The notes under the pieces: generated by a model | Database searches by the model: none | What the model was told of the DNA's origin: nothing | The model's input: only the letters and a program-made list of their open reading frames with translations | Assembly: GCA_964604615.1 (NCBI GenBank) | Contig: CAZRZU010000003.1 | Coordinates: forward strand, 1 to 45,202 | Source of the DNA: an uncultured Oscillospiraceae bacterium | GTDB lineage: Bacteria > Bacillota > Clostridia > UMGS1883 | Length of the DNA stretch: 45,202 nucleotides | Direction of reading: 5' to 3' | Program-made: the position numbers and the translations under genes | Part shown: in pieces, positions 1 through 42,260 of the stretch | How positions within the stretch are numbered: position 1 is the stretch's first letter | Layout of the letters: each line of letters opens with the position of its first letter

Positions 1-88
1 CCTTCTTTCCCGAACCCTTCGCGACTCTTGAAAATTAAGTTTTTCGACAGTCTGAGGAGTTGCTGCAAATAATTTGCAGCAGTCCCTA
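1..88 (-). repeat. Partial, reverse-oriented second copy of the hairpin-bounded element seen in full at 41484-41882; truncated by the window edge
   Basis: The reverse complement of 1-54 aligns by hand to 41512-41567 at about 44 of 56 positions (CAGACTGTCGAAAAACTTA... versus CAGCATGTCGATAAACTTA...; TCGCGAAGGGTTCGGGAAAGAAGG versus TCGCGAAAGGTTCGGAAAAGAAGG). It is preceded by a terminal hairpin at 56-86 (GGAGTTGCTGCAAAT/ATTTGCAGCAGTCCC), in the same position as the 41484-41511 hairpin. Confidence 0.7.
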
Positions 89-91
89 TAA

Positions 92-643
92 TTATTTATC
101 TTGTGATATATCTTTTACAACCTTTTGCACCGTTCCGTAAATGCAGGATTTAATAAGTGAAACAAATTTTTCGGCAGGAATCATGTCCGGTTCAAGAAGC
201 CATTTTTTTATTGCATTGACGAAAGCTTCAGAGAAAAAGGATACATAAAAATTATTGTTTTCATCATCTGCAAAAATATCATAAATGTATTTTTCAACAA
301 CAGGTATCAAAAGATCCTGGAAGTATTCAAAAAATGAGTTCTGACCGTCATATTTTAAAACCTTGCGATAGAATCGTTTGTTTTCTTCAAGATATTTACA
401 TACATCTTGAAGAAAAGAGAACCCGTCTTCATATTTCTTTTCCTTAACAGAAGCAATAAATTCGGTATAATAAATCCAGTTTACCAAGTCGTATTTATCT
501 TTAAAATGATAATAAAAACTCTTCCTGTTCATTTCGCACCTGTTGCAGATGTGTGCTACCGTAATTTTATCAAAGCTCATTTCCTCCATGCTTTCTTTAA
601 GTGCTGCTGCAAGAGCCTTTTTTGTTAAATTTGAATCAGCCAT
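92..643 (-). CDS. TetR/AcrR-family transcriptional regulator (DhaS-like)
   Basis: 183-aa ORF. The N-terminal HTH block KITVAHICNRCEMNRKSFYYHFKDKYDLVNWIY is typical of TetR-family regulators. GGAGG lies 7 nt upstream of the ATG on the minus strand. Confidence 0.85.
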   Translation of the reverse strand: MADSNLTKKALAAALKESMEEMSFDKITVAHICNRCEMNRKSFYYHFKDKYDLVNWIYYTEFIASVKEKKYEDGFSFLQDVCKYLEENKRFYRKVLKYDGQNSFFEYFQDLLIPVVEKYIYDIFADDENNNFYVSFFSEAFVNAIKKWLLEPDMIPAEKFVSLIKSCIYGTVQKVVKDISQDK

Positions 644-948: not shown

Positions 949-978
949 TATATTTAAGATTGTTAAGGAGTTGTGCTT

Positions 979-3219
979 ATGAAAAAAGTTTTTTGTTTAA
1001 TTTTAACATTAACCTTAATTTTGACATCAATTACTGCCGGTGCAGTGGGTGTAGTATGGTCGCAAACCACCTTGGAGAAGGGCACCCTTACAGCTACTGT
1101 TACGGGTGTTTCTGATGGTGACAGAATAGTGGTGCGTGTTCTTCGGGACGGTGTGTTCTCAAACCTGAACATGGTATGGGCAGAAGGGGAAGAGGCTGAA
1201 ATTTCTGTTGACATCGCTTCCGGTGATGACGAGGCAAGTATTTTTGTGTGGGAGCAGAATAGTATGATACCCCGGCTTTCCACTGCCGGCATATCTGAAA
1301 TAACAACAGCCGGTATTAAAGATGAAAATGCCCTTTTCAGCGATAACCAGATGGTAAATAATGCAAACGCAGTGGGTTATATGACACTTGATACTCCCCT
1401 TGTGGGTGATTATTCCGTGAGCTTTGATTTAACCGTAAGAGAGGTTGGCGACAATGCCATTATGCTTGGTGACAGCAGCAATGCTACTACACTCGGCTAC
1501 GGTGAATCAAGTGCAATTTTGCAGTTTGCAAACAGCACAAACTTCCAGACAAGACGAGGTGACGGCTCGGGTAGCTACTCCGAAGCAGCTGAAACAATCT
1601 GCACCTTTGAAACAGGAAAGACTTATCACGTTACAATCCAGGGTAATACAACAACAAATACCTACAACGTAATAATTAATGACGGCACAAATCAGTACAT
1701 AAGCAGTACTATGACTGCAAGAACAAATGTAGCAACAGCCATTGACACTATCTATTTTGTAAATAATTCCAAGAATATAACCGAGAGTAACGGATATTAT
1801 ACAAACTACAACTTCTCGGGAACAAGTTTTGAAATTCTCAACGAAGAAACAGTTGAAATCCCCAAGTACGAATACTCAGGTCTGGGTATGTACTACGGCT
1901 TAGAGGTTGTTTCCACAGGCAAGTATGTAAGAGGTAACAACGGTAAGTTGACTGCCGATTATACTTCTGCCTCCGATACAAGCGCAATGTTCCTGCCCCG
2001 TGACTTGGGCGACGGAAGTCATGCCTTCGTGTGCAAAAGCTCCTCAAACCGTATGACAACAACAGGCACAAGCGGGGAACAGCTTACCAGTAGTGCATAT
2101 GTTATGACAAATAACACGCAGCACTGGGTGATGGAAGAGAGCGAAAGCTATTCCGAAACAAACAGAACATATTACTTTAAGCATATTGACTCAGGTAACT
2201 ACGTAGGCTTAAGCGGCACAAACCTTGCTCTTGTTACAAGTGCAGACAAAAAGGAAATCCGCCTTGTACCCGTTGAGGGTGAGAGCCTCCTTTACCAAGT
2301 TTCCAAGACAGACGCATACAATCTTCTTTCCGCAGCACAACGTGAAAGACTTGAGAGTGTTTACGAATCCGTTGCAGGTGACGTATTTGGTCGTTACGGC
2401 GGTACAACTGAGTGGACTCCCAGAATAAGAATGGATAATATGTTCACGGAAATTCTTAGCGGCACTTTAACAGAGGCAGAACAGCTTGCAAAACTTGAAG
2501 AGTTCTTAACAGCCTCCTCAAACGGTTATATTTACGACGGACAGGCGAGCTATCAGACAATCAGCACATCAATCCCCGGAACAGAAGGTCTGTACTGGGA
2601 ACAGGATGAAGGTACGGCGGGCAACTACGACTTCTGGAGCGGTACTTATCTTGATGGTATGCTTTACAAGTATACAATATATGAAGCTGACGGCACAGCT
2701 CAGCAGACAATTAACCTTTATGTTGAAGACCAGTCAACAGCACAGACAAATGCTGCAACATTTAGAGAAGTTCTTTTGAATATTCCTTATGCTTTCCGTC
2801 AGCATTTGACAACAGTAAAGATAAGAAACGACGGAGCAAACTACTATAACGGCGGTGGCGGTGTGCTTTATATCAGAATTAACTGGTGCCCCGATGCAAA
2901 CAATATGCGCAGCACAGTTATTCACGAATTAGGCCATATCGTAGACCAGGCATGCGGCACATGGTCCAACGGAAGTGGCTGGGCGGCAGCAAAGAGTGCT
3001 GATATGTACTCTGCATCAGGCTATGCTAATTCAAGTAACGCAGAAGACTTTGCAGAATTCTGCAGAATGTACTTTGCAGCATACGGTAATCCCGACATGC
3101 AAAAGGGCCTTAAGGTAATTATGCCCGAGCGATATGCATCCTTCGGAAGACTTCGCCAGAATAATCTCGGCGGATGGGGTCTTTGGGAAGATGAATACAC
3201 AACTTACGGATACGAATAA
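979..3219 (+). CDS. Secreted multidomain protein with a C-terminal HExxH zinc-metalloprotease domain (ATLF / M34-like), paralog 1
   Basis: The ORF runs 973-3219. ATG 979 is preferred because AAGGAG at 965-970 lies 8 nt upstream. It has a signal peptide (MKKVFCLILTLTLILTSITAGA). HELGH is at nt 2923-2937, followed about 40 aa later by NAEDFAEFCRMYF, which resembles the HEFGH...EFFAEAF arrangement of lethal factor / PPEP-1-type M34 peptidases. The central region has a LamG-like segment and a QxW-containing beta-trefoil-like segment (NTQHW). Confidence 0.75.
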   Translation: MKKVFCLILTLTLILTSITAGAVGVVWSQTTLEKGTLTATVTGVSDGDRIVVRVLRDGVFSNLNMVWAEGEEAEISVDIASGDDEASIFVWEQNSMIPRLSTAGISEITTAGIKDENALFSDNQMVNNANAVGYMTLDTPLVGDYSVSFDLTVREVGDNAIMLGDSSNATTLGYGESSAILQFANSTNFQTRRGDGSGSYSEAAETICTFETGKTYHVTIQGNTTTNTYNVIINDGTNQYISSTMTARTNVATAIDTIYFVNNSKNITESNGYYTNYNFSGTSFEILNEETVEIPKYEYSGLGMYYGLEVVSTGKYVRGNNGKLTADYTSASDTSAMFLPRDLGDGSHAFVCKSSSNRMTTTGTSGEQLTSSAYVMTNNTQHWVMEESESYSETNRTYYFKHIDSGNYVGLSGTNLALVTSADKKEIRLVPVEGESLLYQVSKTDAYNLLSAAQRERLESVYESVAGDVFGRYGGTTEWTPRIRMDNMFTEILSGTLTEAEQLAKLEEFLTASSNGYIYDGQASYQTISTSIPGTEGLYWEQDEGTAGNYDFWSGTYLDGMLYKYTIYEADGTAQQTINLYVEDQSTAQTNAATFREVLLNIPYAFRQHLTTVKIRNDGANYYNGGGGVLYIRINWCPDANNMRSTVIHELGHIVDQACGTWSNGSGWAAAKSADMYSASGYANSSNAEDFAEFCRMYFAAYGNPDMQKGLKVIMPERYASFGRLRQNNLGGWGLWEDEYTTYGYE

Positions 3220-3303: not shown

Positions 3304-5523
3304 GTGATTACAGTGAAAAAAGTTTTGAGTTTTATATTGCTGTTTTTAATGCTTTTTGCAATAAACGCAAATGCCGCAGAGGTTAAGTGGAGCGAGAATG
3401 TTCTCAGAAGCGGCTCTCTTACCGCACAAGTGTACGGAGTGGAAGAGGGGGACATGGTATCGGTTGCAGTTTATAAAGAAGGCACCCTCGTTTCAAAGGG
3501 TATAAAAATTGCACAAAGCGATGCGGTTGATGTTCCTGTGAATGTTACATCAGGCGATTATGCGAGGGTCTTGGTGTGGGATGAAAACTCCCTTGAGCCA
3601 AAAGCAGAGGTTTCGTCACGTCTGACCCCGGACGGTGTCAGTGACGATGCAATATTCAGCGACAATCAGCAGTCTAACCGTACAGATGCTGCAGCGGGGT
3701 ACAAAACCTTTAATGCAGTTACGGGAGAATATATGATAAAGATAAACATTAACGTTTTTCAAAAGGGCGATAATGCAATCTTAATCGGTGATAGCAGTAA
3801 CGGAACACTTAGTTACGGAGCAAGTTCAGCAATTCTTCTTTTCAACGGAGATAGTTTTGCCGTAAGAAACGGAAACGGAGAAGGCGGGTATACTGCAGAT
3901 GCGGTTAGCTTGTGTCAGGTAGACACAACTAAAACATATGAGGTAGTTTTTAAGGGGAATATAAGCGACAACACATATCAGGTAATTATAACAGAGGGTA
4001 AAAACCGTTATACAAGCGATTTGATGCACGCAAGAACTGACGGAGCAAAGCTTGACATAATTGCACTTGTTTCCAACGGCAGAAATACAGTGGTTAAAAA
4101 CGGCTGTTACTCCAATTTTGCTTTTTACGGGAAAAATCTTAGGGTTATAACAGACCCCGACGATATGGTGCTCGACCCCATATATACCTATGATGGCTTT
4201 GAAGGTCTGTATTACGGTTTAATGGTTGACGGTAAGTATGTAAGGGGCAACAACGGAAAATTAACCTACGACTACGACAGTGTAAAAGATACAAGTGCAA
4301 TGTTCATTCCCCGTGACATGGGCGATGGAAGTCATGCCTTCGTGTGCAGAAGCTCAAATAACCGTATAACCACACCTTCAACAATATTACAGAGCCTTGC
4401 AAGCTCGGCATATGCCGTAAATGATAACAGCCAGCATTGGATATTGGAAAAGAGCGAAAATTACTCGGAGGATAATCTGTCGTATTATATAAAGCATATT
4501 GACAATAATAATTATATCGGCAAGGCTTTTATAGGAAATAATCTTACCTTGAGGCAGGAGAGCGGAAAAGTTGAAGTGACCTTTGTTCCCTTGTATGATT
4601 ATAGTCCGTTGTATCTTGTAAGTCTTACGCAGTCTTATAATATGCTTACCGACAGGCAGAGGTATATGCTTGAAACCGTGTATGAGTCTGTGGCAGGGGA
4701 CATATTTGGCCGTTACGGCGGTTATACTGAATGGACTCCCAGAATAAGAATGGATAATATGTTCAATGAAATCCTTTCGGGAGGATTGTCCGAGTCGGCA
4801 CAGCTTACAAAGCTTAATGAATTTCTGAATGACACAAACGGATTTATATATCTGGGACAGGCAAGCTACGATGAGATAAGCACAGCTATTCCCGGAACGG
4901 AGGGCTTGTACGCAGAGATTGACGGAGGAACAGCAGGCACATACGATTTTTGGAGAGGCACAATGCTGGAAGGCATGCTTTACAAATACAGTATTTATAC
5001 CGCTGAGGGTGAGCTTGAGCAGACAATCAATATTTACGTTCAGAACGACGGAACGGCACAGACAAATGCCGCAACCTTCAAGAGGGTAATTCTGCAGATA
5101 CCCTACATATTCAGACAGCATCTTAAAAACGTGAAGGTGCGAAGCGATAGTGCCAACAGCTATAACGGCGGTGGCAACGATATGTACATAAGACTCAATT
5201 GGGCACCTAATGAAGCAAGCATGAGAAGCACTGTTGTGCATGAGCTTGGTCATATTATTGACACCCAGAACGGAAACTGGTCAACGGGCTCGGGCTGGGT
5301 AAATGCCATGGCACAGGATATGTTTACTCCCTCCGAGTACGGCGCAACAACTAACGCAGAGGACTTTGCAGAATTCACGAGAATGTATTTTGAGGCATAT
5401 ACCTGCAAGGACAGACAGAGAGGACTGGCGATAATTATGCCTGAAAGATATGCATCATTTGGCAGACTCAGAAAAAACAACCTTGGCGGCTGGGGCTTGT
5501 GGGAAGATGAATATACAAGCTGA
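3304..5523 (+). CDS. Secreted multidomain protein with a C-terminal HExxH zinc-metalloprotease domain (ATLF / M34-like), paralog 2
   Basis: 739-aa ORF; the start could be GTG 3304 or GTG 3313. It has a signal peptide. It is collinear with paralog 1 along its whole length. HELGH is at nt 5239-5253, followed by NAEDFAEFTRMYF. Both paralogs end in the same ...IMPERYASFGRLRxNNLGGWGLWEDEYT block. Confidence 0.75.
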   Translation: MITVKKVLSFILLFLMLFAINANAAEVKWSENVLRSGSLTAQVYGVEEGDMVSVAVYKEGTLVSKGIKIAQSDAVDVPVNVTSGDYARVLVWDENSLEPKAEVSSRLTPDGVSDDAIFSDNQQSNRTDAAAGYKTFNAVTGEYMIKININVFQKGDNAILIGDSSNGTLSYGASSAILLFNGDSFAVRNGNGEGGYTADAVSLCQVDTTKTYEVVFKGNISDNTYQVIITEGKNRYTSDLMHARTDGAKLDIIALVSNGRNTVVKNGCYSNFAFYGKNLRVITDPDDMVLDPIYTYDGFEGLYYGLMVDGKYVRGNNGKLTYDYDSVKDTSAMFIPRDMGDGSHAFVCRSSNNRITTPSTILQSLASSAYAVNDNSQHWILEKSENYSEDNLSYYIKHIDNNNYIGKAFIGNNLTLRQESGKVEVTFVPLYDYSPLYLVSLTQSYNMLTDRQRYMLETVYESVAGDIFGRYGGYTEWTPRIRMDNMFNEILSGGLSESAQLTKLNEFLNDTNGFIYLGQASYDEISTAIPGTEGLYAEIDGGTAGTYDFWRGTMLEGMLYKYSIYTAEGELEQTINIYVQNDGTAQTNAATFKRVILQIPYIFRQHLKNVKVRSDSANSYNGGGNDMYIRLNWAPNEASMRSTVVHELGHIIDTQNGNWSTGSGWVNAMAQDMFTPSEYGATTNAEDFAEFTRMYFEAYTCKDRQRGLAIIMPERYASFGRLRKNNLGGWGLWEDEYTS

Positions 5524-6852: not shown

Positions 6853-9744
6853 TTAAAGTGTTGCCAAAAGGCTTCTGAGCCTGATTTTTACAGCACCCAG
6901 ATTTGTGATTTCATCAATTTTAATTTGTGTATAAATCTTATTACCATTTTCAAGAATGCTTCTTACTTCGTCTGTTGTAATTGCATCAACACCGCAACCG
7001 AAACTCACAAGCTGAACAAGGTCCATGTCCTTCTGTTCTGTTACATACTTTGCCGCACGGTATAAACGGGAATGATAAGTCCACTGGTCAAGAACCCCCG
7101 GTCTCACGGGAGGCGCAAGGTGAGAAATGGAATCCTCCGTAATAAGCGCCACGTTAAAGCTTGTGATAAGCTTATCAATACCGTGATTTATTTCGGGGTC
7201 AACATGGTAAGGTCTGCCTGAAAGAACAATAATATGCTTTCCGTCCTTACGTGCCTTTTCGATAATTTCCGCACCCTTTGAGCGAACGTTGGCAAGATAG
7301 TTTTCCCTTTCCGCGTAAGCCTTTTTAGCCGCATGAGTTACGTCCTTTAAAGTAATGGACGGATAACGTGCAGATAAAATATCGTACATCTTTTTGGGGA
7401 AATCCTTCTCACGGTGAATACCGACATAATTGTATATAAAATCAATATCTGCAACTTCGGGACAGTTGGAGGCTATAACCTCGGGATAGTAAGCAACTAC
7501 GGGACAGTTATAGTGATTGTCGCCCATATTGTCGTCAAAGTTATAAGACATACAAGGATAGAAAATCGTCTTGACGCCTTCCTCAACAAGGCTTGCCACG
7601 TGACCGTGCATGAGCTTTGCAGGGAAACAAACCGTGTCGGAAGGAATAGTGGATTGCCCCTTAAGATACAGCTTTCTTGAGGACTGGGGACTCCTTGCAA
7701 CCTCAAAGCCCAGGTCTGTAAAGAAAGTGTGCCAGAAAGGATACATTTCGTACATGTTAAGACCCATGGGAATACCGATTTTACCAAGCTTTCCTTCCAG
7801 AGGAACATAGGAAGACAAAAGCTCGTTCTTATATGCATAAAGATTTAAGCTTTCATCGGGAGATTTCTTTGTAACGGGTCTTTCGCAGCGGTTGCCGCTT
7901 ATGAACTTTCTGCCGCCCTCAAAAGTGTTGATTGTGAGAAGACAGTTGTTTGTACAACCCTTACATTTAACTGTTGAAACAGTGTGCTCGAAGTTTTCAA
8001 GACTTTCCTTAGTTATGATGCTGCTCTTTTCGCCTTTCTTGCTCTTTGCGTAGAGAGCCGCACCGTATGCACCCATAAGTGCAGAAATGGAGGGGCGAAC
8101 CACCTGAACACCCATTTCCTGTTCAAATGCGCGGAGCACAGCATCGTTTAAGAATGTACCGCCCTGTACAACAATTCGTTTGCCCAAATCTTCCTTGGAT
8201 GAGGGGCGGATAACTTTGTAAATGGCATTTTTTACAACACTTGTGGACAATCCTGCCGAAATGTCTTCAACGGTAGCACCGTCTTTCTGAGCCTGTTTTA
8301 CCGAAGAGTTCATAAATACAGTGCATCTTGAACCCAAATCTACGGGTTTTGTGGCATAAAGTCCCTTTTTTGAAAATTCTTCGATATTGTATCCAAGGGC
8401 ATTGGCAAAGGTCTGGAGAAAGCTGCCGCAACCCGAGGAGCATGCTTCGTTAAGATAAATGTTATCAATAGCTCCGTTCTTTATCTTAAAGCACTTCATG
8501 TCCTGGCCGCCGATGTCAATAATAAACTCAACATCAGGCATAAACTTTTTTGCGGCTGTAAAGTGAGCTACTGTTTCAACTATGCCGTAGTCAATACCAA
8601 AAGCATTTTTTATAATATCCTCGCCGTAGCCTGTTACTGCGGCAGCGGCAATCTGAATGTCGGGCTTTTCTTGGTAAATTTGCTTTAAAATATCCAATAT
8701 AACAGGCACAGGGTTACCGCTGTTGGATGAATATGTAGAAAAGAGGATTTCTTCGTCTTCGTTAATTAAAACGGTTTTTGCTGTTGTACTGCCTGCGTCA
8801 ATACCAAGGTAAACCTTACCCTTTGCCTCGGCAAGAGTTTTCTGGTTAACTGTTGCCCTCTTGTGGCGTTGGGTAAACTCCTGGTATTCTTCCTCGCTTG
8901 TAAAAAGAGGGCTGAGGGTGTTAAATTCGCCCTCCGCAGAATACTTTTTAATGCCGTCAATTACACTGTCTATGTCAATAGCCTGATCTGCGCAGATTGC
9001 AGCACCTAAGGCAACATAGTAAAGTGAATTTTCGGGGCATGTGCCTTTCCTGTTCAAAGCTTTGTCAAAAAGGTCCCGAAGAGTGGGGAAGAAGGTTAAC
9101 GGACCGCCAAGGTATACAACGTTGCCCTCGATGGGTCTTCCCTGAGCAAGACCGCCAATCGTTTGGTTTACAACTGCGTCAAAAATACTTGCGGAAATGT
9201 CGTATTTATTTGCACCCTGGTTAAGAAGAGGCTGAACGTCGCTCTTTGCAAAAACACCGCAGCGGGAAGCAATTGTATAAAGCCTCTCGTGCTTTGATGC
9301 ATATTCGTTCATTTCGGTAGGTGTGAGCTTTAAAAGAGTTGCCATCTGGTCAATAAACGCACCTGTGCCGCCTGCACAGCTTCCGTTCATTCTTACCTCG
9401 CAGCTTCCCTGAAGGAAAAGAATTTTCGCATCTTCGCCACCCAGCTCAATAATAACATCTGTACCGGGCAGAAACTTGTTTGCAGAAGCTCTTGTGGCAT
9501 AAACCTCCTGAACAAATGAAACACCGGCACTTTCGCTTATGCCCATGCCTGCGCTGCCCGAAATGGCAAAAAGATACTCTCTGTTTTCAGGAAACTGAGC
9601 CTTTATTTTATTGAGCAATTCAACACTTTTCTCCTTAATCTGAGAAAAATGTCTCTCATAGGAAGAAAAAATAATATTGTTTTCCTCGTTGATTACAACA
9701 CACTTAAGTGTTGTTGAACCTATGTCAAAACCTATACGATACAT
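6853..9744 (-). CDS. Acyl-CoA dehydratase activase-related protein: two BcrAD/BadFG-type ATPase domains plus a C-terminal dehydratase-like extension
   Basis: The ORF extends to 9759. ATG 9744 is preferred because GGAGG lies 8 nt upstream. The actin-fold ATPase signature occurs twice (IGFDIGSTTLK and LGIDAGSTTAK). This is followed by a Cys cluster (CKGCTNNC...GNRCERP) and an extension of about 350 aa. Confidence 0.8.
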   Translation of the reverse strand: MYRIGFDIGSTTLKCVVINEENNIIFSSYERHFSQIKEKSVELLNKIKAQFPENREYLFAISGSAGMGISESAGVSFVQEVYATRASANKFLPGTDVIIELGGEDAKILFLQGSCEVRMNGSCAGGTGAFIDQMATLLKLTPTEMNEYASKHERLYTIASRCGVFAKSDVQPLLNQGANKYDISASIFDAVVNQTIGGLAQGRPIEGNVVYLGGPLTFFPTLRDLFDKALNRKGTCPENSLYYVALGAAICADQAIDIDSVIDGIKKYSAEGEFNTLSPLFTSEEEYQEFTQRHKRATVNQKTLAEAKGKVYLGIDAGSTTAKTVLINEDEEILFSTYSSNSGNPVPVILDILKQIYQEKPDIQIAAAAVTGYGEDIIKNAFGIDYGIVETVAHFTAAKKFMPDVEFIIDIGGQDMKCFKIKNGAIDNIYLNEACSSGCGSFLQTFANALGYNIEEFSKKGLYATKPVDLGSRCTVFMNSSVKQAQKDGATVEDISAGLSTSVVKNAIYKVIRPSSKEDLGKRIVVQGGTFLNDAVLRAFEQEMGVQVVRPSISALMGAYGAALYAKSKKGEKSSIITKESLENFEHTVSTVKCKGCTNNCLLTINTFEGGRKFISGNRCERPVTKKSPDESLNLYAYKNELLSSYVPLEGKLGKIGIPMGLNMYEMYPFWHTFFTDLGFEVARSPQSSRKLYLKGQSTIPSDTVCFPAKLMHGHVASLVEEGVKTIFYPCMSYNFDDNMGDNHYNCPVVAYYPEVIASNCPEVADIDFIYNYVGIHREKDFPKKMYDILSARYPSITLKDVTHAAKKAYAERENYLANVRSKGAEIIEKARKDGKHIIVLSGRPYHVDPEINHGIDKLITSFNVALITEDSISHLAPPVRPGVLDQWTYHSRLYRAAKYVTEQKDMDLVQLVSFGCGVDAITTDEVRSILENGNKIYTQIKIDEITNLGAVKIRLRSLLATL

Positions 9745-37953: not shown

Positions 37954-39696
37954 ATGAAAACAAGCAAATGGTTATTCAAATATATAAAGCCTTATGTTTT
38001 CGGAATGGCTTTTGCGTTTTTACTCACTGTTATAAATACTGTTTTGAGCAACGTAAGACCGTACATTCAAGGCAGAATAGTTGACGAAGTTTTTACAGGT
38101 ATGGACGCATCTCGTCTTACAACATTGGTTCTTGCAATGCTTGTGTCAATTCTGCTTAAGGATATTTTCAGAATTATTGACCATTACATACTTGAAGGCA
38201 CAAGTCAGAAAATTGTAAAGAATATGCGTATAGAGTTGTACAACTCCTTACAAAAGCAGGACTTTAAGTTTTTTGACTCAAACCGTACAGGGGACATTAT
38301 GAACCGTTTGTCCGGTGATATTGACTCTATCCGCCACTTTGTTGCGTGGGTGTTGAACGGTATGATTGAAAACCTCTTTCTGTTCATTACTGCCCTTATT
38401 ATTTTAGGGTCAATCAATTTGCAGCTTACGCTTATCCTTTGCATTGTAACGCCGCTTATTGCTTTAACAGGCATATCCTTTTCAAAAAAGGTTGGTCCCG
38501 CATTCCGTAATGCCCGTGCATGCCTCTCTCAGCTTAATACAGTTGCACAGGAGAACATTTCCGGAAACCGTATTGTTAAGGCTATGGTAAGGGAAAAGTA
38601 CGAGCTGGAAAAGTTTGATAAGGCAAACACAGACTATAAAAATGCAAACATCAATTCCAACCGCATATCACAGAAGTATGTTCCCACACTCAATTTTCTT
38701 GCAAACACTTTAAATGTGCTTGTACTTATCGTTGGCGGCTGGATGGTTATTGCCGATAAAATGACAGTGGGCGATTATGTAACCTTTAACTCCATGAGCT
38801 GGGCGCTTAATTCCCCTATGCGCTCATTGGGCTGGCTCATAAACGACACAAGCAACATGTTGGCAAGTGCCGAAAAAGTAAAGGAATTTTACCTTGCTGA
38901 ACCTGAAATTTACGGTAACAAAGAAGACGAAGACCGTAACAAAAGGCTTGAGGGTAATGTCGAATTCAGAAACGTATCCTTCTCATATGACGGTTCGCCT
39001 GCTTTGGAAAACATCAGCTTTACGGCAAAGCGTGGTCAGACTGTGGCAATTATAGGAGAAACAGGCTCTGGTAAATCCACAATTGCAAATCTCATGTTCC
39101 GTTTTTACGATGCTACAGAAGGTGAAGTTCTGCTGGACGGAATGAATGTAAAGGACATGAGCTTAAAGCACGTGAGAAAGAGCATGGCAATTGCAATGCA
39201 GGACATTTTCCTTTTTTCGGACACTATCGAAGGCAACATAGCCTACGGTAACCCCGAGGCAAGCTTTGAGGAAGTGAGGAGTGCCGCAATTAAGGCTGAC
39301 GCAAACGAATTTATTGAAAAAATGCCCGAGGGCTATGACACCATTATCGGCGAGCGAGGCGTGGGACTTTCAGGCGGTCAGAAACAGCGTATTTCCCTTG
39401 CAAGAGCACTTCTGAAAGACCCCTCCATACTTATTCTTGACGATACAACCAGCGCTGTTGATATGGAAACAGAAAAGTATATACAGGAAATGCTGGGTAA
39501 AGAGTCGGGCAACAGAACCATGTTCATAATTGCTCACCGTATCAGCTCCGTTAAAAATGCCGATTTAATTCTCGTTATGGAAAAAGGCAGAATTATTGAA
39601 CGAGGCACCCATGATGAGCTTGTGGCATTAGGCGGAAAATATAAAGAGGTATGCGACACCCAGTACGGTAATTTTAACGTAAAGGAGGGAGCATAA
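37954..39696 (+). CDS. ABC exporter half-transporter (TMD-NBD, ABCB/MDR type), subunit 1
   Basis: Six-TM domain followed by an NBD with Walker A GETGSGKST, signature LSGGQKQR and Walker B ILILDDTTS. ATG 37954 has GGAG 9 nt upstream. Confidence 0.9.
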   Translation: MKTSKWLFKYIKPYVFGMAFAFLLTVINTVLSNVRPYIQGRIVDEVFTGMDASRLTTLVLAMLVSILLKDIFRIIDHYILEGTSQKIVKNMRIELYNSLQKQDFKFFDSNRTGDIMNRLSGDIDSIRHFVAWVLNGMIENLFLFITALIILGSINLQLTLILCIVTPLIALTGISFSKKVGPAFRNARACLSQLNTVAQENISGNRIVKAMVREKYELEKFDKANTDYKNANINSNRISQKYVPTLNFLANTLNVLVLIVGGWMVIADKMTVGDYVTFNSMSWALNSPMRSLGWLINDTSNMLASAEKVKEFYLAEPEIYGNKEDEDRNKRLEGNVEFRNVSFSYDGSPALENISFTAKRGQTVAIIGETGSGKSTIANLMFRFYDATEGEVLLDGMNVKDMSLKHVRKSMAIAMQDIFLFSDTIEGNIAYGNPEASFEEVRSAAIKADANEFIEKMPEGYDTIIGERGVGLSGGQKQRISLARALLKDPSILILDDTTSAVDMETEKYIQEMLGKESGNRTMFIIAHRISSVKNADLILVMEKGRIIERGTHDELVALGGKYKEVCDTQYGNFNVKEGA

Positions 39697-41471
39697 TGGC
39701 ACGAAATAAATTTGACGTAGATGAAAAACTGGAAAGCCGATTTAAGTTTGATTATTTGAAGAGATTGGCTCTTTATTTGCTCCCTGTTAAAAATTTGATG
39801 TTTATAACCCTTGCGTTTGTGGTTCTTACAAGTATACTCAACATGCTTGCTCCCATGATAACAAGGCATGCAATGGACGTAAGCCTTCCCAACAAGGACT
39901 TTTCAACGGTAATTATGCTGGGATTAGGTCTTCTTTGCATTTACATATTCAATGCAGTAATTGAACGGTTTCGCCTCCGCGCAATGAATATAGCGGGGCA
40001 GAGCCTTGTTGCAGACTTAAGGCGCGACGTGTTTAAAAAGTTGCAGGAATTACCCTTTGACTTTTTCGATTCACGTCCCCACGGCAAAATTCTTGTAAGG
40101 GTAATCAATTACGTTAACTCAATTTCAAACTTAATGACGGGCGGGCTTATTAACCTTATTACAGACTCGTTCACAATTGTTGTAACAATGATTATGATGT
40201 TAACCCTTTCTGTAAAGCTTTCGCTTATTATGCTCTTGGGTGTTGTGTTCTTCACTGCAATTATTTTTATGATGAAAAACAAGCAGAGAAGAGTGTGGCA
40301 GAACTATTCCGCAAAGCAGAGCAACCTGAACGCATACATACATGAAAGTATAACGGGAATTAAAGTTACTCAGTCATTTAACCGCGAAAGAAAGAACAGC
40401 GAAATTTTCACCGAGCAATGCGAAAACGTGCGCACAAGCTTTATGAAAGCTAAAATTATTGATATATGCAACTGGCCCATGGTTGAAACAATTTCAACCC
40501 TTACAACATGTGCGGTGTTCCTTGTGGGCGGCCATGACCTTATTAACGGCGGAAGCATAACCGCAGGTACGGTTATAGCCTTTGTTGGGTATGTATCGCT
40601 TTTCTGGACCCCTGTGCTCAACATATGCAACTACTACAACCAGCTTGTCAATGCGGCTGCATACCTTGAGCGAATATATGAAGTGCTGGATACTCCCGTT
40701 CTTGTTCACGACCTGCCCGATGCGGTTGATGTGGACCACGTGGAGGGCGAGGTTGAGTTTAAAAATGTTGACTTTTCCTATGAAGAGGGCATCAAGATAC
40801 TTGATAACATGTCGTTCAAGGTGAAGAAAGGGGAGACCATTGCAATTGTGGGCCCCACAGGTGCGGGTAAAACCACAATAATAAATCTTCTCACACGTTT
40901 TTATGACATTCAAAACGGAGAAATTTTAATTGACGGAAAAAACATAAGAAGGTTTACTCTTTCCTCTCTTCGCAGAAACGTAGGTGTAATGCTGCAGGAT
41001 ACTTTCATTTTTTCGGGCAGTGTATATGACAATATTCGTTACGGTAAGCTTGACGCAACCGAGGAAGAAATTGAACGTGCTGCAAAGGCTGTTTGCGCCC
41101 ATGATTTTATAACAGAGCTGGAAAACGGATATGAAACAGAGGTAAACGAGAGGGGCAGTCGCCTTTCGACAGGGCAAAGACAGCTTATCAGCTTTGCAAG
41201 AGTGCTTCTGTCCAATCCTAAGATACTTATTCTGGATGAAGCCACCTCAAGCATCGATACAAAAACCGAAAAGGCTTTGCAGGAGGGTATTAACCGTCTG
41301 CTTGAGAACAGAACGGGCTTTGTTATTGCACACCGATTGTCCACCATCAGAAATGCCGACAGAATTATGTATATTGACAAGGGACAAATTAAAGAATGTG
41401 GCACCCATGACGAGCTCATGGAAAAGAAAGGTCTGTACTATAAACTTTATACAAGTCAGTATATGGAATGA
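39696..41471 (+). CDS. ABC exporter half-transporter (TMD-NBD, ABCB/MDR type), subunit 2
   Basis: Walker A GPTGAGKTT, signature LSTGQRQL and Walker B ILILDEATS. TAATG overlap with subunit 1, consistent with a heterodimeric exporter. Confidence 0.9.
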   Translation: MARNKFDVDEKLESRFKFDYLKRLALYLLPVKNLMFITLAFVVLTSILNMLAPMITRHAMDVSLPNKDFSTVIMLGLGLLCIYIFNAVIERFRLRAMNIAGQSLVADLRRDVFKKLQELPFDFFDSRPHGKILVRVINYVNSISNLMTGGLINLITDSFTIVVTMIMMLTLSVKLSLIMLLGVVFFTAIIFMMKNKQRRVWQNYSAKQSNLNAYIHESITGIKVTQSFNRERKNSEIFTEQCENVRTSFMKAKIIDICNWPMVETISTLTTCAVFLVGGHDLINGGSITAGTVIAFVGYVSLFWTPVLNICNYYNQLVNAAAYLERIYEVLDTPVLVHDLPDAVDVDHVEGEVEFKNVDFSYEEGIKILDNMSFKVKKGETIAIVGPTGAGKTTIINLLTRFYDIQNGEILIDGKNIRRFTLSSLRRNVGVMLQDTFIFSGSVYDNIRYGKLDATEEEIERAAKAVCAHDFITELENGYETEVNERGSRLSTGQRQLISFARVLLSNPKILILDEATSSIDTKTEKALQEGINRLLENRTGFVIAHRLSTIRNADRIMYIDKGQIKECGTHDELMEKKGLYYKLYTSQYME

Positions 41472-41483
41472 TGAAAAATTCCC

Positions 41484-41882
41484 AAAGGGACGGCAGAAAG
41501 GCCGTCCCTTTCAGCATGTCGATAAACTTATTTTTAACCACAATCGCGAAAGGTTCGGAAAAGAAGGTTTTCCGAATAAAATAGGCGGGGTTAATAGCAT
41601 TCACCCCACCGAAAGTGCCGATTTTAGGGGGTCGACCGATTAATTGTCATCTACCGTTGGGGACAGTCCCCCTTTGGTAAATCGGGAGACGATTTACCAA
41701 AGAAGACTTGCGAGCCTTTGTTGGGACGGTCCCCTCCGGTCGATTCCTTGCACGAGAAATCGGTACTTTGTTCCACAGAAAAACATTGACAAAAAATATT
41801 GCCCCCGGCAAGATTTTTTGGCGCGTGTCGATTTTTCGACATGCTGAGGGACGGCTGAAAGGCTGTCCCTTTGTCTTTTTGA
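41484..41882 (+). repeat. Hairpin-bounded, internally self-complementary noncoding element (candidate structured ncRNA or MITE-like repeat)
   Basis: End hairpins lie at 41484-41511 and 41847-41870. Perfect 11-nt inverted segments CAGCATGTCGA (41512-41522) / TCGACATGCTG (41836-41846) sit just inside them. Several nested complementary pairs and perfect local hairpins lie between (details in findings). A partial homologous copy is at 1-88. Confidence 0.7.
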
Positions 41883-41944: not shown

Positions 41945-41973
41945 TTGACTAAAAGCCAAAAAAGTTATAAAAT
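41945..41973 (+). promoter_or_regulatory. Sigma-A promoter of the atp operon
   Basis: TTGACT (41945-41950), 17-nt spacer, TAAAAT (41968-41973). Confidence 0.55.
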
Positions 41974-42008: not shown

Positions 42009-42260
42009 ATGGACAATAAATATAAGCATATGAGAGCGGCGGCGCATCTTACACAATTTGGTCTCAGTATGGTTTCGCCCATTATTTTATGTTTAATATT
42101 TGCTCTTTGGTTAAAAAATACATTTAACATAGGTTCATGGGTTATACTTGTTGCCATACTTCTGGGCGCAGCAGCTTCCTGCATGACCATGTTTAAATTT
42201 ATGAACACCGTTAAAAAGGAAATGGAGGATAGGGACAATGACGAAAAACGTGAAAACTGA
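42009..42260 (+). CDS. atpZ: AtpZ/AtpR-like small membrane protein of the F-ATPase operon
   Basis: About 83 aa with two TM helices (FGLSMVSPIILCLIFALWL..., WVILVAILLGAAAS). It is the first gene of the atp operon. ATG 42009 follows ACGGAGAG. Confidence 0.65.
   Translation: MDNKYKHMRAAAHLTQFGLSMVSPIILCLIFALWLKNTFNIGSWVILVAILLGAAASCMTMFKFMNTVKKEMEDRDNDEKREN

Follow-up and report, generated by a model that had tools for sequence, protein, structure and literature searches.

We found that positions 41484-41882 of the window (the whole 45,202-nt stretch of DNA analyzed here) contain one copy of a mobile repeat that is non-coding and dispersed in uncultured gut Clostridia/Oscillospiraceae. The insertion target of this copy is the terminator of an ABC exporter gene, and the two hairpins that bound the region are the exporter's own intrinsic terminator, doubled as a 26-nt target-site duplication. 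The element is probably a non-autonomous, MITE-like transposon that chooses terminator hairpins for their structure and duplicates the whole hairpin. It is short and non-coding, has terminal inverted repeats and locus-specific duplications, and occurs as dispersed copies alongside empty sites (coordinates in Table 1). An earlier, sequence-only reading had proposed a new structured RNA, with a MITE as an alternative; the mobile-element alternative was right in kind, and the target-site duplications and empty-site alleles that it named as marks of a MITE were both found.

Table 1. Features of the two element copies and their surroundings, in window coordinates.
Feature	Positions	Strand	Basis or remark
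Second element copy, 5' end only, cut by window start	1-54	-	Similarity and R1 match
Terminator hairpin of TetR-family gene	55-85	-	Directly adjoins 5' end of second copy
TetR-family gene	92-643	-	Pfam TetR_N, TetR_C_8
ABC exporter, upstream host gene	39696-41471	+	Pfam ABC_membrane, ABC_tran
Left host terminator hairpin, proximal copy of target-site duplication	41486-41511	+	T-tract broken by element (TTT, then CAGCATG)
Element proper, MITE-like non-coding repeat, 335 nt here	41512-41846	+	Family covariance model R1
Left terminal inverted repeat CAGCATGTCGA	41512-41522	+	Perfect complement of 41836-41846
P1 hairpin GTTCGGAAAA-GAAGG-TTTTCCGAAT	41553-41577	+	Helix 2 of family alignment
P2 hairpin, conserved AATCGCATT-type loop	41584-41610	+	Helix 3 of family alignment
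P3 5' arm AAAGTGCCGATTTTAGGGGG	41612-41631	+	Helices 4 and 5; pairs with 41746-41769
Optional apical module at P3 tip, ~114 nt	41632-41745	+	Absent from most copies
P3 3' arm with conserved internal loop, CCTT-GCACGA-GAAATCGGTACTTT	41746-41769	+	
P4 terminator-like hairpin, TTGCCCCCGGCAA then GATTTTTTGG	41788-41822	+	Helix 6
P5 terminal hairpin GCGTGTCGA-TTTT-TCGACATGC	41823-41846	+	Helix 7, 96.7% paired
Right terminal inverted repeat TCGACATGCTG	41836-41846	+	Inside P5
Right host terminator, distal copy (41847-41872) with intact T-tract TTTGTCTTTTTG	41847-41882	+	Terminator-like
atp operon promoter TTGACT-17-TAAAAT	41945-41973	+	Beyond element, unaffected by it
First atp operon gene, ATPase_gene1 family	42009-42260	+	Beyond element, unaffected by it

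The element proper matches the family covariance model R1 over its full length (184.6 bits, E 1e-49) and is 87-97% identical to copies in loci L041, L072 and L075. The core measures ~225-245 nt, and most other copies are 200-243 nt long; the window copy reaches 335 nt because the optional 114-nt apical module is present. Its terminal inverted repeats, already seen as perfect 11-nt inverted segments on first reading, are complementary at 11/11 core positions and stretch to 16 nt at 94% complementarity, and those of the family consensus, whose left end reads (C/G)AGACTGTCGA, match at 9/11. The end motifs are (C/G)AGACTGTCGATAAAC and TCGACACGCTG. The outermost conserved bases of the family are (C/G)AG...CT(G), with TGT 5 nt further in at either end, and a GTGTCGA motif is repeated at both ends in the family comparison. 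The element lacks a promoter and any credible conserved ORF: as the sequence-only reading had judged, the ORFs listed in the gap can be set aside, since they cover the optional module and unique flank that other copies lack.

Abutting both ends of the element, 41486-41511 and 41847-41872 form a 26-nt direct repeat with 24/26 identical positions (92%), and the exact bounding-hairpin pattern occurs at two places only in the window, against 0 expected. The end hairpins had been recognized before as direct copies of each other, which stands, but they had been counted as part of the element and are instead duplicated host sequence. Terminator calling on the + strand classed the distal hairpin copy as terminator-like but not the proximal one, and the first 8 nt of the tails contain 2-3 T at proximal and 5-7 T at distal copies. 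The right hairpin (41847-41872), with its T-tract, would act as the functional terminator for a joint transcript of exporter plus element. The same arrangement recurs in the family. Duplications of the six complete copies (the window copy and five others) measure 24, 26, 26, 27, 28 and 33 nt, atypically long for a MITE; their sequences differ from locus to locus, and each spans the local terminator stem-loop, so that the six canonical insertions each sit on a different one. The two copies of the duplication agree at 24/26 positions in the window, 27/27 in L072, 25/26 in L046, 25/28 in L019, 24/24 in L017 and 33/33 in L069. Two truncated copies have flanking repeats of 62-66 nt, three copies (L076, L043 and L041) have no recognizable duplication, and no fixed motif is common to the left flanks.

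Further copies, which the sequence-only reading had suggested counting, were found within the window and beyond it. The window contains a second copy whose 5' end is 80.7% identical to 41511-41567 over 57 nt (E 5e-9) and matches R1 model positions 1-54 (41.9 bits, E 1e-9). A genome pattern scan returned 62 matches, comprising 12 true relatives and 50 chance matches; the relatives, of which 4 are incomplete or truncated, come from six Clostridia/Oscillospiraceae MAGs, where they occupy unrelated housekeeping contexts, and at least four pattern-matching copies occur in one Oscillospiraceae MAG and at least four in one Clostridia MAG. Host assemblies include CAZNIC01, JBJDXJ01, JAFSGW01 and JAFUOO01. 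Nine of the 11 scorable copies run in the direction of the upstream gene, while the copy in L017 is intact, has a perfect 24/24 duplication and runs antisense to both neighboring genes. Empty orthologous ABC-atp junctions were found in three related lineages (L078, L080-L083 and L084), where the stop codon of the ABC exporter is followed by one terminator and then the atp promoter. Orthologues at these sites share 88-90% protein identity and their terminators differ in sequence from the window terminator; no exact empty allele with an identical hairpin sequence was recovered. The MAG with empty site L082 carries the element elsewhere (L069).

The region is strongly structured, and its fold stability is far above chance. 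RNAfold gave -172 kcal/mol for the + strand of 41484-41882, against -116 +/- 6 in dinucleotide shuffles (z = -9.2), which answers a check put forward with the first reading; the - strand gave -163.6 kcal/mol (z = -8.8). Each pairing proposed earlier was found at the same coordinates, including a perfect 13-bp central hairpin (41672-41684/41690-41702), a 9-bp side hairpin (41554-41562/41568-41576) and a long-range stem, here delimited as 41612-41624/41757-41769. The description of the region as rod-like holds for P3 and the apical module, which together form a long nested rod, but family comparison resolves the element as a whole into a multi-stem fold, P1-P5. P1 is 100% paired in 8 copies, with one compensatory pair and a closing G·U pair invariant in 8/8. 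P2, with one C·A mismatch in the window copy, has compensatory changes in 7/12 pairs and exists in three stem versions (GGCGGGG/CCCCGCC, GGAGCCG/CGACTCC and GGCAGGG/CCCTGCC). P3 is 100% paired, with 5 compensatory pairs and two invariant G·U pairs. P4 is called terminator-like on both strands and has at least two interchangeable versions in the family, the alternative being GACCTCAAAG...CTTTGAGGTC.

These stems, P1-P5, are maintained by compensatory substitutions, with the + strand favored. Across copies, 95.8% of cells in the internal stems are paired, compared with 40-57% in controls whose 3' partner was slid by 1-3 columns, and 20 pairs have changed on both sides, compared with 9.1 +/- 1.7 in shuffles; 0/500 shuffles reach any measure. 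An asymmetry of G-T pairs had earlier been read as a sign of selection on a + strand fold, and the family agrees: read on the + strand, it has 36 G·U cells and 5 A·C cells, and its consensus fold reaches -80.2 kcal/mol on the + strand versus -60.7 on the - strand. Covariation, put forward earlier as a further check, is thus strong in the family. Three G·U pairs are invariant in the family, and invariant unpaired segments lie beside the covarying stems. Strong interior conservation and covariation are unusual for a MITE, which should need its ends alone, and we know of no MITE mechanism that requires a covarying core.

The insertion footprints suggest how a MITE-like transposon of this kind might move. 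A transposase supplied in trans, probably a DDE enzyme, would recognize the inverted repeats of terminators by their cruciform or hairpin shape and not by sequence, and gap repair would leave the entire stem-loop copied to both sides of the insertion. With the duplication ending at the feet of the stem, the proximal copy would lose its T-tract, and as a consequence the upstream gene would be read through into the element; the transcript would gain a structured 3' extension, with its end at either P4 or the distal copy of the terminator. One reason why the fold is conserved may be that propagation requires it in cis, whether as RNA or as top-strand DNA, and the + strand RNA of the element may have a role. 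Since no transposase was found, we infer the catalytic mechanism from insertion footprints alone. No autonomous partner or transposase was present in the window, in the 8-kb loci of the relatives or in plasmid, phage and viral collections; the neighbor genes of the copies are unrelated housekeeping genes with no transposase among them; and the fetched loci and the window yielded no extra element ends. Several findings count against this explanation: duplications of variable length (24-33 and 62-66 nt) are not expected of a rigid transpososome, symmetric cruciform attack does not predict the co-orientation bias (9/11), and the covarying interior, the three copies without duplication and the lack of an exact empty allele also weigh against it.

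Some of these findings would also fit mobility that depends on RNA, in which the read-through + strand RNA is itself active, either templating a reverse transcriptase supplied in trans, in the manner of a SINE, or serving as a scaffold for a recombinase. Conservation is RNA-like, with invariant unpaired segments beside covarying stems; the three invariant G·U pairs and the preference for the + strand, the co-orientation of most copies, a duplication length that varies as in target-primed insertion, and an element with no promoter of its own behind a proximal terminator without a T-tract all point the same way. We nevertheless consider this explanation unlikely. The element has terminal inverted repeats and no A-tail, the 3' flank and terminator of the donor locus are not carried to new sites, the antisense copy in L017 is intact with a perfect duplication, G·T pairs are tolerated in folded single-stranded DNA too, and neither Rfam searches nor the window and the loci of the relatives showed a signature of a reverse transcriptase or ribozyme. 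It agrees with the terminator-targeting transposon on all points but the intermediate. Taken further, the element might be a bacterial counterpart of SINEs or an RNA-scaffolded transposon, whose disabled proximal terminator forces transcription and whose P1-P3-core RNA is an obligatory intermediate or cofactor; this would explain the covarying interior, the sense bias and the variable duplication length, and we regard it as distinctly unlikely.

Very improbable, in our judgment, is a single-stranded-DNA remnant of the IS200/IS605 (PATE) or REP-like kind, moved by an HUH tyrosine transposase that recognizes hairpins on the lagging-strand template. Such an origin would fit the strand-specific fold, the P5 hairpin at the right end, the GTGTCGA motif at both ends and the choice of a hairpin as target, and orientation bias could follow replication direction. 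However, IS200/IS605 elements are not known to duplicate their target or to carry terminal inverted repeats, and their insertion point lies 3' of a fixed tetra- or pentanucleotide. In the present family, the six complete copies are flanked by duplications of 24-33 nt, there are terminal inverted repeats, the left flanks have no fixed motif in common, and Rfam gave no match to IS605-associated RNAs or HEARO. The IS200/IS605 version of the earlier mobile-element proposal is likewise contradicted by the inverted repeats, the target duplications and end hairpins that are host terminators differing per locus.

The window copy taken by itself, with its very stable fold, its position between two operons and no ORF, could be read as a functional RNA of this single locus, acting as an sRNA or regulating the ABC exporter or atp operon in cis. 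This is exceedingly unlikely: the element is missing at the same junction in three related lineages, which have a single terminator followed by the atp promoter, it is found in unrelated contexts elsewhere, and it lies upstream of the atp promoter with a terminator in between. A link of the element to atp operon or ABC exporter function fails, and the new structured RNA of the sequence-only reading, as a single-copy gene, is refuted by the empty orthologous sites and dispersed copies.

We give almost no credence to a degenerate group IIC intron or a fragment of another known terminator-seeking retroelement. Group IIC introns are read-through-dependent ribozyme retroelements of >600 nt with domains I-VI, and according to Robart, Seo and Zimmerly (2007) they reportedly enter sites directly behind the stems of intrinsic terminators, in sense orientation; the insertion points directly 3' of terminator stems, the sense orientation of most copies and the read-through dependence resemble this. 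The element, however, is too small (225-335 nt), lacks an intron signature (Rfam searches relaxed to E <= 10 showed no group II intron domain), and has target duplications and terminal inverted repeats, neither of which is known from group IIC introns. CRISPR-like mini-arrays, DGRs, integron attC sites and Xer/dif sites were rejected, as the repeats are locus-specific host terminators and there are no associated genes.

Among described elements, the bacterial MITEs (Correia elements, RUP/BOX/SPRITE, bcr1 and QMITE; reviewed in PMC10969869) are likewise small, non-coding, intergenic and dispersed, with terminal inverted repeats, direct repeats, truncated variants and transcripts predicted to form very stable stem-loops. 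Their duplications are 2-10 bp, whereas the element duplicates a whole host terminator hairpin of 24-33 nt; its interior, and not just its ends, is conserved with compensatory changes; and no parent IS is known. In target choice, the basis of our comparison, the element resembles IS1272/TnSha1 of the IS1182 family, Firmicute elements that target inverted repeats or terminator hairpins without a sequence consensus (PMC4923244) and often lie just downstream of genes. These are 1.9-3 kb long and encode a transposase, unlike the non-coding element; TnSha1 inserts in both orientations, whereas the element family is orientation-biased; and they delete or replace the stem-loop without duplication, whereas the element duplicates it. 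Such duplication is the outcome of pathway b in a published cruciform model, which would duplicate the whole stem-loop and was proposed, not observed (PMC5678879). The IS1202 subgroup of the IS1202 family has unusually long direct repeats of 27-28 bp (bioRxiv 10.1101/2022.12.17.520857), a range that the duplications of the element (24, 26, 26, 27, 28 and 33 nt) overlap, but here the length follows the hairpin instead of being fixed. The ends of IS1202 start with TGT (left end T-a/g-T), whereas those of the element are (C/G)AG...CT(G) with TGT 5 nt inside, and hairpin targeting has not been reported for the subgroup. PATEs and REP/REPIN sequences are similarly short, non-coding and hairpin-rich with strand-specific structure, but they have a fixed short target motif and neither duplication nor terminal inverted repeats, and the end hairpins of the element are host sequence.

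[quoted passage not shown] The element family provides six natural footprints of that outcome. It also suggests a route by which a mobile element can be transcribed and can remodel the 3' ends of transcripts, the proximal T-tract lost and the distal one kept, with the genes unharmed; each host mRNA would gain a structured tail of 230-340 nt. The covarying core may be a sign that transposition includes a step in RNA or single-stranded DNA. In genomes of gut Clostridia, such elements could be taken wrongly for new structured RNAs or for terminators in tandem.

Database searches agreed with the expectation that no Rfam family would match. Rfam release 15 gave no match in the whole window at gathering score, and searches at E <= 10 on the region and E <= 1 on 8 short copies gave sub-threshold matches only, which we took as chance. 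These include a c-di-AMP riboswitch on the opposite strand, with 12-24 bits (best on the element 23.9) against the 38 required. Scans of viral contigs yielded 0 matches each for the central hairpin, the P1 pattern and the left-end pattern; the sole viral-contig match to the pattern for the inverted-repeat pair (L005) is a GC-rich coding region, unrelated on alignment, and blastn of a short copy against plasmids and phages found no match. A metagenome scan with the central-hairpin pattern returned nine matches to the 29-nt hairpin only, all unrelated; the pattern was poor in hindsight because the central module is optional. A look-up of the TetR gene beside the second copy, made to recover that copy in full, returned no record; its terminator and the adjoining copy are laid out just as at the ABC exporter.

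In short-read assemblies, such elements cause breaks at terminators. Logan metagenome contigs with identical flanking genes break inside the element, at 41546 and 41745, positions that coincide with stretches common to other copies and with a border of the optional module, whose right end is 41745. An invertible switch behind these breaks was rejected, as the breakpoint sequences are not complementary. The apical module consists, in order, of the palindrome GGGGACAGTCCCC, the 13-bp hairpin with a GGAGA loop, AAGACTTGCGAGCCTTTGTT and the palindrome GGGACGGTCCCC. It is missing in 9/12 relatives and present among them only in L041 and L075; a diverged solo copy lies inside a terminator stem in L017 (4835-4935).

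The region at 41484-41882 is structured far beyond chance, with a predicted + strand folding energy of -172 kcal/mol against -116 ± 6 in shuffles (z = -9.2) and a - strand energy of -163.6 kcal/mol (z = -8.8). Its sequence is as described in the sequence-only reading, and a repeat search recovered bounding hairpins that repeat each other directly over 26 nt (41486-41511 and 41847-41872, 92% identical), inner inverted segments with a perfect 11-nt core (94% over 16 nt), a perfect central hairpin of 13 bp, a side hairpin of 9 bp, and a long-range stem pairing 41612-41624 with 41757-41769. That it belongs to no Rfam family also held, as the whole window gave no match at the gathering score and the region at E ≤ 10 gave only matches that we took as chance.

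The feature is not, however, a single-copy RNA gene, since it has a second copy in the window and 12 dispersed relatives. The second copy, diverged and incomplete because the window start cuts through it, occupies positions 1-57 on the - strand (80.7% identical to 41511-41567, E = 5e-9, blastn of the region against the window) and directly follows the hairpin at 55-85 that terminates a TetR-family gene (92-643, - strand). A pattern conserved between both window copies yielded 62 matches in genome contigs, among which blastn and a covariance model identified the 12 true relatives: four in one Oscillospiraceae metagenome-assembled genome (MAG; 87-100% identical), which is probably of the same species or genus as the window, four in the Clostridia MAG LOHA14_bin.007, and one in each of four ruminant-gut Clostridia MAGs, all per-genome numbers being lower bounds from one exact-pattern scan. 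Neighboring genes are unrelated and housekeeping (DegV, aminotransferase, ThiF, SecDF, MFS, alpha-galactosidase, a GIY-YIG protein), with no transposase among them, and no match was found in plasmid and phage collections or viral contigs. Logan contigs encoding exactly the same flanking proteins break inside the element, one (L001) ending at 41546 and two from different samples (L002, L003) beginning at the same base, 41745; this is the expected effect of a repeat on de Bruijn assembly, and the element fragments short-read assemblies at terminators.

For each copy, the two 110-nt flanks of the element were aligned with each other. Complete copies are abutted exactly at both ends by a direct repeat that differs in sequence at each locus and spans the local terminator stem-loop from foot to foot (see table, where L numbers denote loci fetched from other genomes or assemblies). 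These repeats are target-site duplications, and the bounding hairpins, which the sequence-only reading had taken as part of the feature, are duplicated host terminators outside an element at 41512-41846 (+ strand). Two aberrant copies (L075, L059) have longer repeats that extend into the upstream gene and take in the end of its coding sequence (3'), and a short microhomology, CTTTAT/CTTAT, is present at the L075 junction; this points to template switching and not to insertion of the normal kind. The same flank alignment found no direct repeat at three copies (L076, L043, L041).

Features of the element and direct repeats flanking its copies
Feature	Position	Description	Direct repeat (identical nt)
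Left inverted repeat	41512-41522	(C/G)AGACTGTCGA, then A/T-rich leader	
P1	41553-41577		
P2	41584-41610		
P3	41612-41631 with 41746-41769	long stem, conserved internal loop GCACGA	
Optional central module	window 41632-41745; L017 4835-4935; L041 836-944; L075 7229-7325		
P4	41788-41822	resembles a terminator; two or more interchangeable versions of the sequence	
P5	41823-41844	terminal hairpin whose 3' arm contributes to the inverted repeat on the right	
Right inverted repeat	41836-41846	TCGACA(C/T)GCTG	
Window copy			24/26
L072 copy			27/27
L046 copy			25/26
L019 copy			25/28
L017 copy			24/24
L069 copy			33/33
L075 copy	7111-7418	aberrant, without P4, P5 and right repeat	61/62
L059 copy	1934-2265	aberrant, without left repeat	65/66

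Empty sites came from contigs fetched after a protein search for orthologues of the upstream ABC exporter. A strain with 98% protein identity (L077) shares the window's insertion, whereas the element is absent from three lineages at 88-90% identity (L078; L080-L083; L084), in which the stop codon is followed by one terminator with its T-tract and then the atp promoter. One empty site (L082) and one copy (L069) come from the same MAG, a genome with the element elsewhere. The target-site duplications and the empty sites in these orthologues mark the element as mobile DNA to which the hairpins do not belong. The empty sites also refute an RNA specific to this locus. In one lineage (L079 4306-4533, 88% protein identity), an HTH gene and an LRR protein take the place of the atp operon after the exporter, so synteny at this junction is not universal. 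The left terminator copy of L077 (4285-4318) has a flipped 6-nt loop, CTTTCA versus AGAAAG and TGAAAG in the window (41484-41511, 41847-41872). The palindromic stems around it are identical, and the change resembles a small inversion of the loop.

The layout in the table derives from an alignment of eight short copies (A3) and a covariance-model alignment of the window copy. Most copies measure 200-243 nt; that of the window reaches 335 nt through an extra 114-nt module at the P3 tip, common only to this copy, L041 and L075, and made up of two GGGGAC-N-GTCCCC palindromes around a 13-bp hairpin (GGAGA loop) and a conserved CTTGCGAG stretch. In another MAG (L017), a diverged version of the module occurs alone on the tip of an ordinary terminator stem, with two compensatory pairs in its hairpin. 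The module may constitute a small unit in its own right, structured or mobile, that settles in the tips of hairpins. Since the module sits on the P3 tip, the "rod-like" shape noted earlier applies to P3 plus module, whereas P1, P2, P4 and P5 are local hairpins. The inverted repeats of the window copy are perfectly complementary, with CAGCATGTCGA at both ends, and those of other copies (left CAGACTGTCGA, right CAGCGTGTCGA) agree at 9/11, so both ends of the window copy have changed. A comparison of P4 (A3 columns 191-231) in the window, L072, L019, L017, L076, L043, L046, L069 and L059 revealed at least two unrelated versions swapped among copies: the first (GACAAAAAATATTGCC...) bears a TTGACA hexamer and, on each strand, a T-run, the second reads GACCTCAAAG...CTTTGAGGTC, and a third occurs in L059.

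The internal stems covary among the copies. RNAalifold on A3, whose eight sequences include some closely related ones, predicted 64 pairs, 20 of them with compensatory changes. A separate count over the pairs found changes on both sides in 20, versus 9.1 ± 1.7 in shuffles; 95.8% of cells were paired, compared with 87.8% in shuffles and 40-57% when the 3' partner was slid by 1-3 columns, and none of 500 shuffles reached any of the structure measures. The signal in P4 is partly module replacement rather than point compensation. P2 has three stem versions around an almost constant loop, and the window copy is an intermediate state, its C·A mismatch corresponding to a U-A pair in L041. The earlier argument from G-T pairs for + strand folding likewise gained support: G·U cells outnumber A·C cells by 36 to 5 in the A3 structure, a total that includes three G·U pairs invariant in 8/8 copies, and the consensus energy is -80.2 kcal/mol on the + strand versus -60.7 on the -, a comparison that favors the + strand somewhat as the structure was predicted there, although an independent - strand fold is still clearly poorer. 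These data support selection on the interior for a + strand fold, which could act in RNA or in folded top-strand DNA alike.

The element matches MITEs in being short and non-coding, in its terminal inverted repeats and locus-specific target duplications, and in having dispersed copies and empty sites in relatives; it does not fit Rfam families, PATEs or group II introns, and its ends differ from those of IS1202. Long direct repeats have precedents among IS elements. Direct repeats of IS1182 elements span 0-60 bp and those of IS1634 are long and variable. The IS1202 subgroup generates repeats of 27-28 bp (bioRxiv 10.1101/2022.12.17.520857). IS1272/TnSha1 (IS1182 family) share the element's choice of target, terminator hairpins without sequence consensus, but delete the hairpin (PMC4923244, PMC5678879), whereas the element duplicates it. 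Literature searches found no matching element. What appears new is a MITE family whose insertions duplicate an entire terminator and whose structured core is unusually constrained; being a MITE is ordinary, and the insertion footprint and unexplained covariation are noteworthy.

The best-supported model is a non-autonomous transposon moved in trans by a shape-recognizing enzyme. This enzyme would recognize terminator inverted repeats by shape, the 3' ends of the element would be joined at the target hairpin, and gap filling would then duplicate the whole stem-loop, an outcome drawn as pathway b of the IS1272 model (PMC5678879). The model leaves three features unaccounted for, namely conservation of the interior, the bias in orientation and repeats of variable length, and these lend a small probability to an RNA-dependent element, SINE-like or RNA-scaffolded. 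The alternative offered by the sequence-only reading, a MITE or an IS200/IS605-type element, was right as to mobility (dispersed copies, duplications, empty sites), but the single-stranded IS200/IS605 mechanism is contradicted by the target duplications and terminal inverted repeats. The element also cannot be a group IIC intron, as it is too small, lacks ribozyme domains and is flanked by duplications.

The orientation bias consists of 9 of 11 scorable copies running in the same direction as the gene just upstream; the two antisense copies are L043 and L017, of which the latter is intact and has a perfect duplication. Because the duplication ends at the stem feet, the proximal hairpin abuts element sequence, with 2-3 T in the next 8 nt, and the distal copy retains its T-tract (5-7 T); on the + strand of the window, only the distal copy was called terminator-like. 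The upstream transcript would be expected to read through into the element and end at P4 or the distal terminator. Past that terminator comes the atp promoter (41945-41973), which empty sites share, and this argues against a regulatory link to atp. Elsewhere in the window, two adjacent long + strand ORFs (973-3219, 748 aa; 3304-5523, 739 aa) had no Pfam match at E ≤ 0.001. In L017, the 472-aa ORF at whose terminator the antisense copy inserted is preceded by a T-box leader match at 1409-1671 (+; 80.9 bits, short of the gathering score, 93).
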